64,000 nt of DNA, taken from NCBI GenBank assembly GCA_041178425.1, contig JBEGVH010000016.1, forward strand, positions 32,001-96,000, in the 5' to 3' direction. This DNA is from Pseudomonadota bacterium. Lineage in GTDB: Bacteria > Bdellovibrionota > Bdellovibrionia > Bdellovibrionales > Bdellovibrionaceae. The notes under the pieces were generated by a model. It made no database searches. It was not told the origin of the DNA and saw only the letters and a list, made by a program, of their open reading frames with translations. Below are positions 501-51,314 of the stretch, piece by piece. Position numbers and translations under genes: made by a program. Numbering within the stretch: position 1 is the stretch's first letter; each line of letters opens with the position of its first letter.

Positions 501-1055
501 ATGAGCATTATTTCAACAGATAAAATTAAAAGTAGTCTTAAAAAAATCGAGGCAGAGGTCCAACATTTACTCGAGCTTAAGCCAACGCCGATTGATTTGT
601 TTGAGGTTTCCACCGACTTCGAGAATGACCGATTTCAAATTCAAGCTAACGATAGAGAAGAGTTCTATATTCTTCTGTTCTCGAGACTGTCCCAGTCCTT
701 TGAGAAGGGATTTCTTTTAGAAGCTTCCAATAACTATTCAGATAAAGCTTGGACCTGTGCCCTTCATTTTTCTGAGGGAAGTATTTCAGTTGCTGAACAT
801 CCGATTCCCGTCGAAATCACAATCCCTTCGCCCGGACCAAACAAAGTGATAAAAGCTAGTCCGCTTGAATGGAACTTAAAAACAGTCTCTTGGAAAACCT
901 TGATTCCCGTTGGCAGAGAATGGTCTGCACTCCTTTTTGAGATCTCGCCGGATATTCGTTTTTTATTTATAACTCGTTTGGCTGAACCATGGCTCCAAAT
1001 TCAAACGGAAAAAGCTCACCAGTTTATTGAAAGGGCGCTATCACTTCAACCATGA
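501..1055 (+). CDS. Hypothetical protein
   Basis: 184-aa ORF; stop overlaps the next start (ATGA at 1052-1055), suggesting translational coupling. Confidence 0.7.
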   Translation: MSIISTDKIKSSLKKIEAEVQHLLELKPTPIDLFEVSTDFENDRFQIQANDREEFYILLFSRLSQSFEKGFLLEASNNYSDKAWTCALHFSEGSISVAEHPIPVEITIPSPGPNKVIKASPLEWNLKTVSWKTLIPVGREWSALLFEISPDIRFLFITRLAEPWLQIQTEKAHQFIERALSLQP

Positions 1056-1888
1056 ATAAAGGAACTATATACATCATTTCAGATAGCACCGGAGAGACCG
1101 CGGCCACAATGACCAGAGCCGCTCTTGTTCACTTTCCAGAAATCGACATTACCATTGTTCGTTACAAAAATATTCGCAGCGAGCATCAAGTTGAAAGCCT
1201 CGTTGATGAAGCTTTTCAATCTCGGGCCATGCTTATCTATACCGTTGTATCTCCACAATTGCGGAATAAGATTCGCGATCTGGCTGGAGAAAAAGGTCTG
1301 GTCTTTTTTGATCTACTCGGCCCTCTACTCGGCCAACTTGGTTCTTACTTAGGCGCTTCTGACGAACAACATAAAGTCGGCGCGCTCAGAGCCGTAGACG
1401 AACGATATTTCAAAAGAATTGAAGCGATAGAATATACCGTGAAACACGACGATGGAAAATGTCTCACCGATTTAGATAAAGCCGATATTATTCTCGTGGG
1501 TATTAGCAGAACAAGTAAAACGCCACTTTCAATCTTTTTGAGTCATAAAGGCTGGAAAGTAGCAAATATTCCCTTGGTTTTAAATCAAGCGCTTCCCGAA
1601 GAATTATTTAAAGTTGATCAGCGCAAAATTGTAGGTTTATTGATTGATCTCCCAAGTTTACAAAAAATCCGCCGTAATCGACTAGAAAAGTTTGGTACTG
1701 ATCCTGGTGGTGAGTACGCATCGATGTCCTACATCGAAAATGAACTCGCATATGCAGAAGAACTCTTTCGAAAAAATAAACGGTGGCCGATATTTAACGT
1801 TACCGAACGGGCACTAGAAGAAACGGCAAGCGAAATTACTCGAATTGTTGCTACACGTATGGGCTGGCCCGATTCAGCCCTTTTTTAA
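1052..1888 (+). CDS. Pyruvate phosphate/water dikinase regulatory protein (kinase/pyrophosphorylase, DUF299 family)
   Basis: N-terminal ISDSTGETA, RIEAIEYTVKHDDG and P-loop GISRTSKTP, then ANIPLV. Confidence 0.93.
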   Translation: MNKGTIYIISDSTGETAATMTRAALVHFPEIDITIVRYKNIRSEHQVESLVDEAFQSRAMLIYTVVSPQLRNKIRDLAGEKGLVFFDLLGPLLGQLGSYLGASDEQHKVGALRAVDERYFKRIEAIEYTVKHDDGKCLTDLDKADIILVGISRTSKTPLSIFLSHKGWKVANIPLVLNQALPEELFKVDQRKIVGLLIDLPSLQKIRRNRLEKFGTDPGGEYASMSYIENELAYAEELFRKNKRWPIFNVTERALEETASEITRIVATRMGWPDSALF

Positions 1889-3675: not shown

Positions 3676-4206
3676 TTAAGTAGCAGCCTCAGGTCCTATG
3701 GGCCTAACAACAACGCCAAGATCAGAGACATTTGTTTGACTCTTGATCGAAACAGAAGGGTTCTGCACCACTCGCTGCTGCAATTTTGCAAAAATAGCCT
3801 CACGAATTTGCAACTGATTATCCTGAAGCACGCACTGACGAGCTAAACGCAGCTTCACATTCACCAAAATAGGAGCCTTCAAATTTGCCGTCATGAGGGT
3901 TGGATCCTCTGGAATTGTGATAATGGCGAAGGCTCGCGGGCGCTGTCCACCCTCAAGACGAAGCGACTCATTGTCTGTTTTTGTGAGCATTGGTTTATAT
4001 TCAGGAGCAAAAATTTCTGGTTCTAAAACTGGAAATGCAATATCGGGCACTTCGCAACTTTGTAGCCATGCAAAGATTTCGTCGTTAGGGTCATCAAGCA
4101 AAACAAAACGACGTAAATCATTAAAGCCAAGGATTCCCTCTGGAAAATTAATGACATCCTCTTGCGCGATCTGAACTTTTCCAAATCGTGTCGTAGTGAT
4201 AATCAC
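3676..4206 (-). CDS. fliW: Flagellar assembly factor FliW (CsrA antagonist)
   Basis: TTRFG, FPEGILGF, WLQS and TANLKAPILVN motifs; GTG start at 4206 after AGGAGG; next to csrA. Confidence 0.93.
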   Translation of the reverse strand: MIITTTRFGKVQIAQEDVINFPEGILGFNDLRRFVLLDDPNDEIFAWLQSCEVPDIAFPVLEPEIFAPEYKPMLTKTDNESLRLEGGQRPRAFAIITIPEDPTLMTANLKAPILVNVKLRLARQCVLQDNQLQIREAIFAKLQQRVVQNPSVSIKSQTNVSDLGVVVRPIGPEAAT

Positions 4207-4515
4207 AGTCCCTCCTGTTAAAAACCGTTTTTTGGCGATCATCCTTGGTTTTAAATCCAAAAAACGTCTTACCGATACTAGTTCAAATCGGCCATTCGTT
4301 TGCCCGATTGCCTCTGCAGAAATCTTAAAGACAAACTCTAATGCTCGCTTTGCAGATTCCACATTGAGACTCTTTAAATAGTACCCTGATTAAAATGTGA
4401 CTTTATTTTTGAAGGGAAACAAGATAAATCTAGACCTGCCTGATTCGACGCACAAAGCCAACCTCATCACTACAGTGGAGATTGGTTTGGATTACTTTAC
4501 CTTATGAAGTGCTAA

Positions 4516-4758
4516 TTAACCTGAATGCTCTTCTTTTTTTAACATTCTTGAAATCGAGCGAGTGACATCAGAAGTAGAACTAGCCGCTTGCTGGTTTTGC
4601 TCCTGAATTGCCATATAAACTTCTTCTCTGTGAATTTTAGTGTCCTTGGGAGCCTCGATACCAAGCCTTACTTGCTTTCCCTTGATTTGGACAACTCTAA
4701 TCTTGATGTGATCATCTATTGCAATGCTCTCACCAAGTTTGCGCGTCAACACTAACAT
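4516..4758 (-). CDS. csrA: Carbon storage regulator CsrA (FliW-type, with C-terminal helix)
   Basis: MLVLTRKLGESI...VRLGIEAPK...IHREEVY, plus the IQEQN extension typical of FliW-regulated CsrA. Confidence 0.97.
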   Translation of the reverse strand: MLVLTRKLGESIAIDDHIKIRVVQIKGKQVRLGIEAPKDTKIHREEVYMAIQEQNQQAASSTSDVTRSISRMLKKEEHSG

Positions 4759-8555: not shown

Positions 8556-9074
8556 TTAAAAGTTGAATCCAAACTGGAGCAGACCAGGCCCTGCAAACAA
8601 GTAAGAGAGATAAAAATCGAATGTATCTCCCATAATGAAGAAGCCCAAACCGGAGTAACTACTGCCAAGAGCGCCCGACAACTTAAGATGGGGACCAGAT
8701 TGCACTGCAAGTCCCGCAAAAGATCCCACTTGTATATAAGGACGAATATTAGCTTGCCCCAAAATATATTTCACGTTGATTGCACCTGCCATATCTAAAT
8801 TAGCATGACTGCTGCTCGCGTTGCTAAAATAGCATCTTATCGAGCCATTACTGCCGGGTGTGCAATCTTCAGACTCTGTTGAATTTAAATAGCCCATCCC
8901 AAACTCAAAGGCCCACCGATACCACAATCGAGTAAAATTTAAACCGATGGCTGCATTGGGTGGATTATGGTAACCCATGCCCCAATACCAACCTGGCGGA
9001 CCAGCCAACGCTGTATTTGAAATCAGATAACTCATCAAAACAGAAATAGCTAAAACTCTTCTTACTGGCCACAT
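8556..9074 (-). CDS. Small outer-membrane beta-barrel-like protein
   Basis: Signal peptide ending ALA, alternating Gly/aromatic strands, terminal Phe (LQFGFNF); ATG at 9074 lies 2 nt after the flgJ stop. Confidence 0.65.
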   Translation of the reverse strand: MWPVRRVLAISVLMSYLISNTALAGPPGWYWGMGYHNPPNAAIGLNFTRLWYRWAFEFGMGYLNSTESEDCTPGSNGSIRCYFSNASSSHANLDMAGAINVKYILGQANIRPYIQVGSFAGLAVQSGPHLKLSGALGSSYSGLGFFIMGDTFDFYLSYLFAGPGLLQFGFNF

Positions 9075-9076
9075 AA

Positions 9077-9724
9077 CTATTCTTTCTCTTCCATTTTCCA
9101 TAAAAACTGTTTGGCATCGGGAGCAAGAACTCCAAGATTTTCTCCTGCTGAAATCTTGTCTCCTATTTGTCGGTCAGAGAACTGAAAGTTTCCAATAAGC
9201 AAAGACTTTACACCTTGATGATCTAACTTTGCGACTTCAAGACCATTTTCGAGTTTGAAGCTCCCAAGCCACTGAGCATCCCACGGACTCTGAATCGGAG
9301 TTGGCTTTCCCTCATTCGACTGAATCTTATCAAATTGAATAGCCTTGTTACGCTCCTGAACCTGCCCCATCCAGAGGTCTTTTTGACTCAGTGGTAAAGG
9401 CCCCATTGGCTTTTCTTTTGGAACTCTGATGCCAAGACGATCTCCGTATCGATCAACTAACTGATCGTAGATCATTTTACCGAGCCCGATCCCCCCCTTG
9501 TCGCCCCACTGTTCGACATACTGCTGATCGAGCTGCTCGCGATAGTATTTTTCAGCAAAACCAGATGGCATGAACTCGCTCTCATTCACCGTGGCTCGCA
9601 TTTGTTTTACCATTTCGCGAAGAAATTGCTTTTCATAGAGAGAAGCAACATCCTTCAGCTGCTTTTCTGCAGCTGAAGGTTCCATGATTCGACTGGGCGG
9701 ATTGGATTTAATGTTGATTCCCAT
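9077..9724 (-). CDS. flgJ: FlgJ rod-binding protein without glucosaminidase domain
   Basis: Rod-binding motif LKDVASLYEKQFLREMVKQMRAT...LDQQY...GIGLGKMIYDQL; follows flgI. Confidence 0.85.
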   Translation of the reverse strand: MGINIKSNPPSRIMEPSAAEKQLKDVASLYEKQFLREMVKQMRATVNESEFMPSGFAEKYYREQLDQQYVEQWGDKGGIGLGKMIYDQLVDRYGDRLGIRVPKEKPMGPLPLSQKDLWMGQVQERNKAIQFDKIQSNEGKPTPIQSPWDAQWLGSFKLENGLEVAKLDHQGVKSLLIGNFQFSDRQIGDKISAGENLGVLAPDAKQFLWKMEEKE

Positions 9725-9734
9725 ATTTTAAAGA

Positions 9735-9940
9735 AGAAAAAAGTGGGGAGGTTAAGTTTGAATCGCGTGCATCCTGCACTGACTCTTTAAGCTTCGGCCT
9801 ATTATCACCATTCCTTGGTGTGCTGACCTTGTGCCCTTGTTTCCTGCAAAGAAACGTTTTTTTTACTCTTGACCATCCATGGTTCGAGATTCTTACTCAC
9901 CCTCCCCGAACCTTAAACACATCCATGTGTCTAAGGCTTA
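9735..9940 (-). ncRNA. Candidate CsrA-binding (CsrB/RsmY-like) structured RNA with five ANGGA-loop hairpins
   Basis: Minus-strand hairpins ACAC-AUGGAU-GUGU, ACC-AUGGAU-GGU, UUG-CAGGAAA-CAA, CACCA-AGGAA-UGGUG and GUGC-AGGAU-GCAC; closing helix GGGGAGG/CCUCCCC followed by a U-tract. Boundaries are approximate. Confidence 0.7.
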
Positions 9941-9996
9941 AAAACAAACTTATAAATTTAGTGTAATAAAAAATGTAAAAATCTTATACATATTTC

Positions 9997-11028
9997 TCAT
10001 AAAATCTGTAATTCCCCGTGCAAAGCTCCAGCTGCCTTTATGGACTGAAGTATAGTTATCAGGTCTTTTGGAGAGATTCCGAGCTTATTTAAGCCCTGGA
10101 CTAGCTCCCCAACACTAATCGATCCACCAATAATCGCCATTTTTTCTTCTGCCGCCGACTTGTCTTTTTTGCCATCCGCGCTAGGTACTTTAATCGAAAT
10201 TGATCCGTGACTTAAGACAACTCTTGAAATTTTCACTTTGTCACCAATGACAACAGTACCAGTCTTTTCATTGATAACAACTTTGGCTTGAGAATCAGGA
10301 TTTACCTCAATCGATTCTATATTAGCTAGAAAATCAACGCCTCTCCCCTCGAAAGAAGGCGGAACTATAATATCGATCGTGGCTGGATCTTTTGCTGAGG
10401 CATACAGACCTCCCAATTCTTTGTTGATCGTCAGTACAGCCCTTGTCGCGGTTGTGAAATCAGGATTATTAAGCGTCAAACGAAACATTTTTTTTGAATT
10501 AAAATCACTTGAAATATCTTTTTCAATCATTGCCCCATTGGGAACCCGGCCCACGGTTGTATGAGCTTCTTTTTCGGCCCCAATAAAAACAGGCCCTTGT
10601 GCCACACCATAAACTTCTTCATTGGCGGCTCGCATCGGTGTCATAAGAAGAGTTCCCCCTTGTAAACTGGAGGCACTTCCGATTGAATTCACCATCACAT
10701 CAATAGTATTTCCTGCTTTTCCAAAAGCCGGCAAGGTCGCCGTAACCACAACAGCAGCGACGTTTTTACTTTCAAGATCTTGATTCTCAAGTTTCAATCC
10801 TAATTTATCAAGCATTCTAACAAAGCTTTTTTTTGTGAACTCATCCTTGGCATCTCCAGTACCCTTAAGACCTATCACTAGGCCATAACCAATGAGCTGG
10901 TTTTCTCTAACACCTCGAATATTCGCGATATCTTTGAGACGTGAAGCCAAACACCATTCTGAACTCAGCAAAATTAATAGAGAGGCTAAAATAAATCTTA
11001 TCTTTACTGATCTTTGGTCTAGTCTCAT
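9997..11028 (-). CDS. flgI: Flagellar P-ring protein
   Basis: RLKDIA...GVRENQLIGYGLVIGLKGTGD, KNVAAVVVTA, SLQGGTLL. Confidence 0.97.
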   Translation of the reverse strand: MRLDQRSVKIRFILASLLILLSSEWCLASRLKDIANIRGVRENQLIGYGLVIGLKGTGDAKDEFTKKSFVRMLDKLGLKLENQDLESKNVAAVVVTATLPAFGKAGNTIDVMVNSIGSASSLQGGTLLMTPMRAANEEVYGVAQGPVFIGAEKEAHTTVGRVPNGAMIEKDISSDFNSKKMFRLTLNNPDFTTATRAVLTINKELGGLYASAKDPATIDIIVPPSFEGRGVDFLANIESIEVNPDSQAKVVINEKTGTVVIGDKVKISRVVLSHGSISIKVPSADGKKDKSAAEEKMAIIGGSISVGELVQGLNKLGISPKDLITILQSIKAAGALHGELQIL

Positions 11029-31966: not shown

Positions 31967-32380
31967 CTAAGCAATCTTCTGCCCGTTGGCTTTTTGCCAA
32001 GCCAATTTGATCTTCTCTTCGAATTGTTTTGCAGAGAAAGGTTTTAAAATGTACTGGCTGACCCCTGCGGAAATCGCATCAAGAATATGCTCCTTTTGCC
32101 CCTCCGAGGTAAGCAAAATGAAAGGTAAGTTGGTTCCTTGGGGATGCATTCGTACCCTTACTAAAAAATCGTAACCCGACAGGTTGGGCATATTCCAGTC
32201 AGAGATAATTAATCCTACAGGCTCCTGCTGGAGTAGTTGCTGCCAATAATTCCAAGCTTTTGCACCATCGTCAGCCTGAACAATTTTATTGTATCCCAAG
32301 CGACGTAACTCGGTACCCACCATGTCTCGAATGGTTGGCATATCATCACAAATAAGAATGCGAGTGTCTTTTGAAAACAT
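31967..32380 (-). CDS. CheY-like single-domain response regulator
   Basis: ICDD, ISDWNMP, LTSE, YILKPF. Confidence 0.92.
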   Translation of the reverse strand: MFSKDTRILICDDMPTIRDMVGTELRRLGYNKIVQADDGAKAWNYWQQLLQQEPVGLIISDWNMPNLSGYDFLVRVRMHPQGTNLPFILLTSEGQKEHILDAISAGVSQYILKPFSAKQFEEKIKLAWQKANGQKIA

Positions 32381-50291: not shown

Positions 50292-51314
50292 ATGAAAAGT
50301 CATGGCCAAGTAAATCAAAAAAATATTGAAAAAACCCTAAAATGGGCTTCCGTTTTTTCAGTCGTTGTGAGCTTCTGCGTTCTTGGCCTCAAGTCCGCCG
50401 CTTTCTTTGCAACGAATTCCCAGGTTGTTTTATCAGACGCACTGGAAAGTATTGTTAATGTGATTGCAAGTCTCATTGCTCTTTGGATTGTTCATGTTAG
50501 CAGCGAACCCGCTGACGATAAGCATCCGTATGGGCATGGGAAACTCGAATATTTTTCGGCAGCTTTTGAAGGGGGCCTCATCTGCTTCGCCGGCCTAATG
50601 ATTATTGCCGAATCAGTTCAAAGCCTTTTCGAAGGTGAGTTGATCGCGAATTTTGAAGTAGGTTTTCTTTACTCTATAGTCGCCAGTCTACTCAACCTGG
50701 GACTCGGGCTATATTTAAAATATGTGGGCTCTAAACATCATTCAGCAGCACTCAATTCTAGTGGGACCCATGTTCTGTCAGATATATGGACGACTATAGG
50801 CGCACTCATCGGCCTGGGCCTCGTTTGGCTGACTGGAAAGCTTTGGCTTGACTCAATCTCTGCTATAATAATGGCTCTCTATCTGCTCTATAGTGGCTAC
50901 AAAGTTGTTCGCTCCGCGGTTGGAGGTTTACTCGACGAAATTGACAACGACTCATTGGGAAAACTGGCGGCCGTGATTGAGAAAACCCGCTTTCCAGGAA
51001 TCATTGATATTCACCAAACAAGGATGATCCGGGCAGGGCGCTTTCATCATATCGATTCACATGTTGTTGTCCCTGAATTTTGGGATGTTAGTGAAGCTCA
51101 TCATCAAACGACCCTCTTTGAGCGCCTAGTTGTTAAGGAGTACCATTTGGAGGGCGAGGTGGCCTTTCACGTAGATCCTTGCCTGAAGTCCTATTGTGGT
51201 CAGTGTGATCTTGAACCCTGCCCCATAAGAATTGCCGAATTTGAAAAAAGATCACACGTTACCGCTCATAGCTTGACCCAAAAGCCCATCTTAGAAGAAG
51301 AAGATGGTCTATGA
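50292..51314 (+). CDS. Cation diffusion facilitator (FieF-like) transporter
   Basis: SDALES, PADDKHPYGHGKLEY, HVLSD; Cys-rich C-terminus. Confidence 0.92.
   Translation: MKSHGQVNQKNIEKTLKWASVFSVVVSFCVLGLKSAAFFATNSQVVLSDALESIVNVIASLIALWIVHVSSEPADDKHPYGHGKLEYFSAAFEGGLICFAGLMIIAESVQSLFEGELIANFEVGFLYSIVASLLNLGLGLYLKYVGSKHHSAALNSSGTHVLSDIWTTIGALIGLGLVWLTGKLWLDSISAIIMALYLLYSGYKVVRSAVGGLLDEIDNDSLGKLAAVIEKTRFPGIIDIHQTRMIRAGRFHHIDSHVVVPEFWDVSEAHHQTTLFERLVVKEYHLEGEVAFHVDPCLKSYCGQCDLEPCPIRIAEFEKRSHVTAHSLTQKPILEEEDGL

Follow-up and report, generated by a model that had tools for sequence, protein, structure and literature searches.

In Gammaproteobacteria, RNA decoys that capture CsrA are textbook knowledge, and in other bacteria the protein FliW is the textbook antagonist of this regulator. 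The fliW gene is absent from Gammaproteobacteria and anti-correlated with BarA-UvrY, and the coexistence of FliW with RNA antagonists of CsrA was named as an open question in a 2020 review (PMC7652899). The closest described RNA to the element considered here is APsRNA1 of Bdellovibrio bacteriovorus HD100, of which the 2013 study by Karunker et al. covers only the existence, size, start site and attack-phase abundance; it reported no homology outside B. bacteriovorus, proposed that the APsRNAs base-pair with attack-phase mRNAs, and contains no mention of CsrA (PMC3627812). Here we analyze a stretch of 64,000 nucleotides (nt) from a member of the Bdellovibrionaceae (positions 32,001 to 96,000 of contig JBEGVH010000016.1, assembly GCA_041178425.1), hereafter the window, whose own coordinates are used throughout. 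Its minus strand carries a 272-nt gap between the flagellar genes flgI and flgJ, and we show that this gap holds a member of a conserved, non-coding, structured RNA family that extends across the Bdellovibrionales and includes APsRNA1. We consider it probable that this RNA is a CsrA-titrating small RNA (sRNA), unrelated in sequence to the CsrB/Rsm RNAs, which coexists with FliW. The RNA itself is already known as APsRNA1; what is new is the function assigned to it, its extent as a family across the order and its coexistence with FliW.

The RNA and the string of flagellar genes around it all lie on the minus strand. The RNA is predicted to measure about 217 nt (9737..9953), its 5' end being placed by homology to the mapped start of APsRNA1 and its 3' end put in a run of U residues. 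Folding with RNAfold returns hairpin 1, then a closing helix, P0, that encloses hairpins 2 to 5 in a multi-branch loop, and then UUUUUU. From the 5' end, hairpin 1 (9911..9936; CCUUAGACAC-AUGGAU-GUGUUUAAGG, with the loop AUGGAU) is followed by the 5' strand of P0, GGGGAGG (9901..9907), which is extended by GAGU at 9895-9898 and pairs with 9745-9751. Within P0 lie hairpin 2 (9866..9889; ACC-AUGGAU-GGU plus an outer stem), hairpin 3 (about 9837..9855; GUUUC-UUUGCAG-GAAAC), in which GGA straddles the border of loop and stem, hairpin 4 (9806..9820; CACCA-AGGAA-UGGUG) and hairpin 5 (9760..9785; GAGUC-A-GUGC-AGGAU-GCAC-GC-GAUUC). The 3' strand of P0, CCUCCCC (9745..9751, preceded by ACUU at 9754-9757), is assigned from both fold and covariation, and the U-run straight after it (9737..9742) forms jointly with P0 a terminator-like end. 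The GGA sites are mostly of the form A(N)GGAU, in loops of 4-6 nt spaced 27-40 nt apart. Hairpin 1 (ACAUGGAUGU) and hairpin 5 (GUGCAGGAUGCAC) come near the consensus RUACARGGAUGU obtained for CsrA by systematic evolution of ligands by exponential enrichment, in which GGA lies within a hairpin loop (PMC4347634). The minimum free energy (MFE) computed for the 272-nt gap is -73.2 kcal/mol versus -55.2 +/- 4.9 for shuffled sequences (z -3.72; 0 of 200 shuffles as good), and the 219-nt RNA proper reaches -69.9 (z -4.63), while its opposite strand yields -57.3 (z -3.45). The initial annotation of this DNA, made from its letters alone, had already described five GGA-loop hairpins, four of them enclosed by a GGGGAGG/CCUCCCC helix with a U-run behind it; its coordinates for hairpins, helix and U-run all agree with the minus-strand sequence (hairpin 2 beginning at 9866), RNAfold returns the same architecture, and the folding that it had proposed as a check thus speaks for the structure.

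The element is widely conserved at a fixed place. By DNA search, 26 of 41 relatives proved to carry the gap; all 20 loci that were fetched have it between flgI and flgJ, with a DNA identity of 70-89% in the gap as against a protein identity of 35-67% for FlgJ. A covariance model of 219 positions and 39 pairs was built from 20 sequences, the window sequence being in the seed, so that its one strong match in the window's own genome (9731-9945, 199.3 bits, E 6.7e-52) is a result by construction. The next matches in that genome (19.7, 14.1 and 13.1 bits; E 0.013-0.8) were treated as noise, and a second copy was rejected. Across the order the model matched 115 of 151 genomes, covering 60 of 69 genera and every one of the 13 families sampled, with one copy per genome save for genome G145, the only one with two matches (contigs C296 and C401; E 1.6e-24 and 1.1e-22); since that assembly has a contamination of 5%, the double match may reflect a mixed bin and not a duplication. 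Of 61 model-matched loci, 60, among them the window, have the RNA on the gene strand with flgI before it and flgJ behind it. When the phylum was sampled, 21 of 24 genomes of the order were matched as opposed to one of 127 others, and that one weakly. This out-of-order match (L066; 20.2 bits, E 0.0078) was rejected as a family member, as neither flgI nor flgJ is nearby. The L066 stretch (about 1501-1691, minus strand, in genome G292 of another family of the phylum) shows three GGA-loop hairpins of its own, GAG-AUGGAA-CUC, UUUUACC-AGGAA-GGUAAAA and GCGC-AGGAU-GCGC, and may be a candidate for an unrelated CsrA-binding RNA.

The model undercounts the family: four of five gaps from model-negative genomes (two genera) still hold an RNA that has diverged but keeps hairpin 1, P0 and additional GGA hairpins, such diverged members retaining their GGA hairpins and little else. 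The regions fetched for genomes G027 and G032 (L150, L151) contained neither flgI nor flgJ and were uninformative. A natural loss is seen in genome G097 (L147, genus g3), in which the gap is about 100 nt long and holds no RNA, and csrA and fliW are present. A pattern scan of all species genomes gave 51 loci, of which 13 were tested with the model and eight were positive; the public records with the motif bear titles of Bdellovibrio, Pseudobdellovibrionaceae, Bdellovibrionales and Bdellovibrionota, and the five model-negative pattern loci, with alphaproteobacterial, spirochaetal and planctomycete titles, were set aside as chance matches.

The pattern of substitution is that of a structured RNA. 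In a covariation alignment of 61 model-matched sequences, standard pairs fill 93.0% of the cells, a level that none of 500 column shuffles attains (79.0%), both sides are altered in 37 of the 39 pairs, and the covariation score is 0.411 versus 0.04-0.09 with partners slid by 1-3 columns, all of these being counts that lean towards structure because the sequences were chosen as matches and the alignment was fitted to the model. An earlier alignment made with MAFFT only had compensatory changes in 16 of 37 pairs. The frequent G-U pairs settle that the RNA strand is the gene strand. The stems drift and the loops stay fixed, much as the initial annotation had noticed in the single sequence. Hairpin 1 shows compensatory changes in all 11 pairs of its stem (helix 2) and keeps the loop GGA in 57 of the 61 sequences; in hairpin 2 the GGA is kept in 59 and helix 5 is 95% paired; hairpin 3, with a nearly invariant stem, has CAGGA in 56; hairpin 4 combines compensatory changes in all five pairs with a GGA in 51; and hairpin 5 retains GGA in all 61, its helix 8 being 99.6% paired even as GUGC/GCAC is swapped for GCGC/GCGC or GUAC/GUAC in relatives. 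The two helices of P0 (helices 3 and 4) are paired in 94.4% and 90.9% of cases, with nine of ten pairs altered on both sides, and at least five U residues lie within 9 nt past P0 in 60 of the 61. The RNAs of the family are 138-259 nt long (median 212), and CGGGGAGGGUGAG is invariant. Open reading frames (ORFs) that overlap the gap encode only 20-48 amino acids, and these were rejected as genes since the alignments show single-base length differences between genera.

A transcript is on record for a relative. In genome G089, the flgI stop at 499,332 and the flgJ start at 499,642 coincide with Bd0535 and Bd0536 of HD100 (Table S1 of PMC3627812), and the model gives an independent match at 499,372-499,592 (E 1.1e-54). 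APsRNA1 was placed at 499,375-499,581 on the plus strand as a primary transcript of 207 nt, with a start mapped by sequencing with and without tobacco acid pyrophosphatase (Table 2 of PMC3627812). Its start lies 6 nt past a TACAAT box and its 3' end in the U-run after CUCCCC, and it shares the hairpins, closing helix and U-run of the window RNA; hence it belongs to the same family. It comes from another genus, to loci of which (L010, L012) the window is about 72-75% identical. APsRNA1 was scored as unconnected to the downstream gene and as having no FliA promoter, and its abundance was 50,451 reads per kilobase per million (RPKM) in attack phase and 3,181 in growth phase (PMC3627812). The corresponding attack/growth values are 15.0/9.0 for flgI and 7.7/41.5 for flgJ (Table S1 of PMC3627812). 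Thus, in attack phase APsRNA1 stands more than 3,000-fold above both flanking genes, and it is 16-fold lower in growth phase. Our literature search, which left subscription journals outside, found no paper on Bdellovibrio and CsrA that by its title or abstract deals with an RNA antagonist, nor another relevant paper on APsRNAs. It is conservation, covariation and these published transcript data from a relative, and not motif density, that establish the element as real.

The presumed protein partner is encoded in the same gene string, 5 kb downstream of the RNA, by csrA (4516..4758; Pfam CsrA, E 9.5e-26), which is followed by the gene for its protein antagonist, fliW (3676..4362; Pfam FliW, E 1.9e-35). 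The window CsrA aligns through its C-terminal extension with the chains 1t3o_A and 5dmb_D of the PDB, which we take to be Bacillus-type, FliW-binding CsrA proteins, and with other CsrA chains only up to residue 59 at most. Searches of the 151 order genomes detected CsrA in 140 and FliW in 130; FliW accompanies the RNA in at least 108 of the 115 RNA-positive genomes, six exceptions being fragmented assemblies. Five checked genomes that have neither CsrA nor the RNA are missing FlgI as well, and this co-loss says nothing specific on the RNA and CsrA, as the whole flagellar module is gone. The genome has a putative target: the flagellin leader L153 (G000:C11) carries, in the 50 nt before the ATG, the hairpin GAAGC-AAGGAU-GCUUC and then a GGA-rich Shine-Dalgarno sequence, AAGGAGGAGGA, the two-site layout of B. 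subtilis hag. This layout is clear in one of the seven flagellin leaders of the genome, the other six being less clear. In B. subtilis, the hag leader with its GGA hairpin is reported to be repressed by the CsrA of B. bacteriovorus (PMC13443453).

On the minus strand the genes run from flgF/G-type rod genes through flgA, flgH and flgI, across the 272-nt gap, to flgJ, an ORF with no Pfam family, flgM, flgN, flgK, flgL, csrA and fliW. The Pfam matches bear out the flanks and the nearby csrA-fliW pair that the initial annotation had named. The upstream neighbor flgI (9997..11028; Pfam FlgI, E 5.7e-112), coding for the P-ring protein, ends with its stop codon at 9997-9999, and the downstream neighbor flgJ (9077..9724; Pfam Rod-binding, E 4.5e-15), coding for the rod-binding protein, begins with the ATG at 9724; each holds this place, on the same strand, in 60 of 61 loci. 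The Pfam-less ORF between flgJ and flgM (8556-9101, minus strand) encodes 181 amino acids. Early in the flgJ coding sequence (9652-9679, minus strand) lies an 11-bp, G/C-rich hairpin, CCUUCAGCUGC-AGAAAA-GCAGCUGAAGG, which was flagged by the terminator scan.

Upstream of hairpin 1, the hexamer TACACT (9960..9965) resembles a -10 box and aligns with the TACAAT of the HD100 locus, which precedes the published transcription start by 6 nt. Across the -35 region lies a degenerate inverted repeat, TGTATAAGATTTTTACA (9974..9990), recognized by alignment, for which other genera have TGTTTC-N5-GAAACA. With up to three of 12 mismatches, this palindrome recurs in 18 of 61 loci, which belong to at least four families and include L008, L010, L012, L051, L067 and L070, each time with a TAnnnT box 6-10 nt further on; in HD100 it extends from about -36 to -20, counted from the mapped start. 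The window copy has five mismatches and was read by eye, the family scan having given instead another site with four mismatches for L001. The palindrome may be the operator for a regulator of the sRNA. Sigma-54 and FliA promoters were rejected by eye for a misfit in spacing, and no FliA promoter is listed for APsRNA1 (PMC3627812). At the 3' end, a simple scan found no local hairpin terminator at the U-run, as the P0 stem is long-range. Over 20 loci, P0 and the flgJ start are separated by anything from 15 to 384 nt. In the window, the flgJ ATG comes 21 nt past P0, with no Shine-Dalgarno sequence and no space for a promoter of its own. The 28 nt from CCUCCCC to the flgJ ATG (ACUUUUUUCUUCUUUAAAAU) contain no GGA, hence no GGA of the hag type at the ribosome site. 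Several loci, namely L139 (1222-1250, a genome in HD100 coordinates), L012, L013, L015, L016, L018 and L020, have a second, local hairpin terminator that follows the sRNA and precedes flgJ; the HD100 locus thus has this terminator and a 61-nt spacer before flgJ, whereas the window has neither, its genus lacking the second terminator and flgJ abutting the U-run.

A related arrangement occupies the same position in the sister order (family f21), where 38 of 41 genomes show FlgI and all 41 show CsrA, with csrA 4-5 kb downstream of flgI. Of the 12 loci examined (L162-L173), 11 have a downstream ORF, and in these the f21 gap between flgI and flgJ measures 46-118 nt; it has a TAGAAT-like box after the flgI stop. 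Seven of the 12 loci have two hairpins with AGGAU or AGGAA loops, the second of which lies on the Shine-Dalgarno sequence and start codon of the next gene, four further loci have a single GGA at the ribosome site, and one locus is rearranged. The next gene is of the Rod-binding type in 11 of 11 cases, five of them above the Pfam cut-off, and our covariance model matched none of 23 tested in this family. As judged from its sequence, this flgJ leader looks like a CsrA-repressed leader of classical layout in front of a rod-cap gene. The five-hairpin terminated RNA of the Bdellovibrionales may have grown out of such a leader, an origin that we infer without a tree or a root.

The RNA has the defining anatomy of a CsrA sponge, namely repeated GGA loops, a terminator-like end and, as seen in HD100, high abundance and its own start, and we propose the following course of events. 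An sRNA of about 215 nt would be transcribed from its own promoter just past the flgI stop, and the transcript would end at the U-run behind P0, the long-range G/C helix enclosing four of the five hairpins. Given a GGA in each hairpin and the spacing between them, there would be room for two or three CsrA dimers, which the RNA would hold away from mRNA targets such as flagellin leaders. Being abundant in attack phase, it would lift CsrA repression at the time when the cell needs flagella and attack-phase functions. FliW would work alongside it and handle the flagellin-coupled feedback, and a read-through fraction would form the 5' part of a flgJ-flgM-flgN-flgK-flgL-csrA-fliW transcript. We infer CsrA binding, sequestration, the physiological direction of the effect and transcription in the window organism itself; a cis role of the element, as a second function, is likely. 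The order-wide covarying RNA, the discrete HD100 transcript and the co-occurrence with CsrA and FliW support, on comparative grounds, the titrating sRNA that was one of the two readings offered by the initial annotation.

Several observations weigh against this proposal. A simple consensus scan of the window found no full sigma-70 promoter, and hairpin 1 begins no more than 25 nt from the flgI stop in 13 of 60 loci, which leaves no promoter spacer, so that any promoter in those loci must sit in the end of flgI. Five sites amount to a small capacity for CsrA, and the GGA of hairpin 3, which the initial annotation had rightly called the weakest hairpin, is paired in the MFE structure (GUUUCUU/AGGAAAC). 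A sponge is not required a priori, since FliW already antagonizes CsrA in such bacteria. The expression data come from another genus than the window organism. A search of 9000-10700 against all 4227 families of Rfam 15, with E up to 10, gave no match to CsrB, CsrC, RsmX, RsmY or RsmZ, the sole match being a chance one to MIR1023 inside flgJ that is owed to the 11-bp hairpin at 9652-9679. Of the earlier label "CsrB/RsmY-like", then, the probable way of working stands and the family membership does not; of the three checks put forward with that label, folding and covariation came out in its favor and the Rfam comparison against it. Motif statistics within the one genome are likewise unremarkable. 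The RNA contains six GGA versus 4.24 in mononucleotide shuffles (P 0.23), and ANGGA occurs 447 times in the whole window, fewer than the 568 expected from shuffling. Genome-wide, at least five GGA-loop hairpins per 220 nt are found at 19 window starts (14 loci) versus about 13 by chance, the latter being a hand Poisson estimate from the genome's hairpin rate with loosely defined GGA-loop hairpins. Twelve of these 14 loci fall inside long ORFs and two outside. The densest loose clusters, of six hairpins each, are at 690-862 (minus strand), antisense within the ORF 501-1055, and at C40:44537-44741 (plus strand); the latter, the only other non-coding cluster, was discarded as on inspection it has not the look of a multi-hairpin RNA.

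The remaining counter-evidence concerns read-through, and it is what speaks for a leader or attenuator of flgJ and the following genes, acting mainly in cis, in which CsrA would set the extent of stopping at P0 and the U-run and the short RNA would be a by-product. With flgJ 21 nt past P0 and no room for its own promoter, termination in the window must be leaky, and the element is consequently also the 5' part of the flgJ transcript; in 12 of 20 family loci, at most 60 nt separate P0 from the projected flgJ start, so that these too would be read through the element. In the RNA run X10, examined for the locus in HD100 coordinates, a contig of 4,686 nt bridges the interior of the RNA into the downstream genes, a weak observation as contigs do not prove single transcripts; the flgI side is uncovered in this run, which is given no weight; the word depths in that run, 7,113 and 2,242 for short contigs inside the RNA versus 459 for the 4,686-nt contig, cannot rank expression. 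As csrA follows downstream and is read in the same direction, such a leader would complete a feedback loop, and the sister order has a genuine two-GGA-hairpin leader of flgJ at the same place. We nevertheless regard a mainly cis-acting leader as improbable. A by-product could hardly reach the level of the short RNA of HD100, which is scored as unconnected to the downstream gene and at 50,451 versus 7.7 stands more than 3,000-fold above flgJ; the spacing between P0 and flgJ differs from locus to locus, with a second hairpin terminator added in several genera including that of HD100; the HD100 flgJ has an AGGAG Shine-Dalgarno sequence of its own; and the window has no GGA on the ribosome site of flgJ. 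The leader that the initial annotation had entertained as its other reading may still be a second role, given the read-through into flgJ and the sister-order precedent.

Alternatively, the RNA might act by base pairing, or as the partner of a protein other than CsrA, with the GGA loops serving as seeds or contacts. Base pairing was suggested generically for the APsRNAs by Karunker et al. (PMC3627812), GGA-rich loops are complementary to UCC-containing targets, and the invariant CGGGGAGGGUGAG is more conserved than a plain stem demands. The literature searched holds no published CsrA-binding data for any member of the family, which counts for this alternative and against titration of CsrA alike. 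We give it only a slight chance, however, for five hairpins that keep a short GGA loop while their stems vary freely bear the signature of a repeated protein site and not of one antisense seed, the loops fit the CsrA consensus, the RNA is always in a gene cluster with csrA and fliW, and the GGA hairpins are what the diverged members have preserved. That the gap might have no RNA function, being a conserved DNA element such as a promoter or operator or a chance structure, could be argued from the inverted repeat and -10-like box at its 5' edge and from the unremarkable single-genome motif statistics. This view is scarcely credible and in practice refuted by the covariation and the HD100 transcript: compensatory changes affect 37 of 39 pairs, with G-U pairs workable on one strand only, and an abundant primary transcript covers exactly this stretch in HD100; the ORFs of the gap are short (20-48 amino acids), and the alignment shows single-base length differences between genera.

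A CsrA-titrating sRNA could also be combined with cis control in a two-in-one device, which is conceivable to us if on balance doubtful: an abundant sRNA would titrate CsrA in parallel to FliW, and its terminator would itself be CsrA-responsive, having evolved from a CsrA-repressed flgJ leader. P0 would close only once the four inner GGA hairpins have folded, and bridging CsrA dimers would draw the strands of P0 together and so favor termination. Free CsrA would then lower read-through into flgJ-flgM-flgN-flgK-flgL-csrA-fliW, coupling a transcriptional autoregulation of csrA to production of the sponge, and the two-hairpin leader of the sister order would represent the ancestral cis form. If true, the passage from an mRNA leader to a protein sponge acting in trans would here be documented. 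Should titration of CsrA as such hold, an RNA unexplained since 2013 would gain a function, CsrA would be tied to the switch between attack and growth phases in predatory bacteria and, taken with the sister-order leader, there would be a case of a protein sponge arising from a leader. The family also makes the coexistence of FliW with an RNA antagonist testable, as HD100 is culturable, has genetic tools and makes the RNA abundantly in attack phase, and as its CsrA has recently been found to act on GGA hairpins in a B. subtilis reporter strain (PMC13443453). If CsrA does not bind, an order-wide structured RNA outside Rfam remains.

Set beside the known systems, the window RNA resembles in its probable way of working the RsmX/Y/Z RNAs of Pseudomonas and CsrB/CsrC of Enterobacteria, which are abundant untranslated RNAs of 100-350 nt with repeated GGA in loops and a terminator at the end, and its number of GGA sites is similar to that of RsmY and RsmZ. 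In contrast to the Csr/Rsm RNAs, in which the terminator stem is a local hairpin, that of the window RNA is a long-range helix around four hairpins; and, unlike them, it keeps a fixed place upstream of csrA within a string of flagellar genes, belongs to a phylum that has FliW and is present as a single copy. The palindrome TGTTTC-N5-GAAACA upstream of the family is presumably also distinct from the GacA box. The hag leader of B. subtilis and the flaA leader of C. jejuni share with it the flagellar setting of CsrA and FliW and the same kind of GGA hairpins, and the flaA mRNA also titrates CsrA (PMC4894983). Yet those are mRNA leaders with GGA on the Shine-Dalgarno sequence, whereas the window RNA does not code for protein, has a terminator-like end and leaves the ribosome site of flgJ free of GGA. 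The f21 leader of the sister order, finally, shares its position between flgI and flgJ, but has neither the closing helix nor the U-run that set the RNA of the Bdellovibrionales apart.

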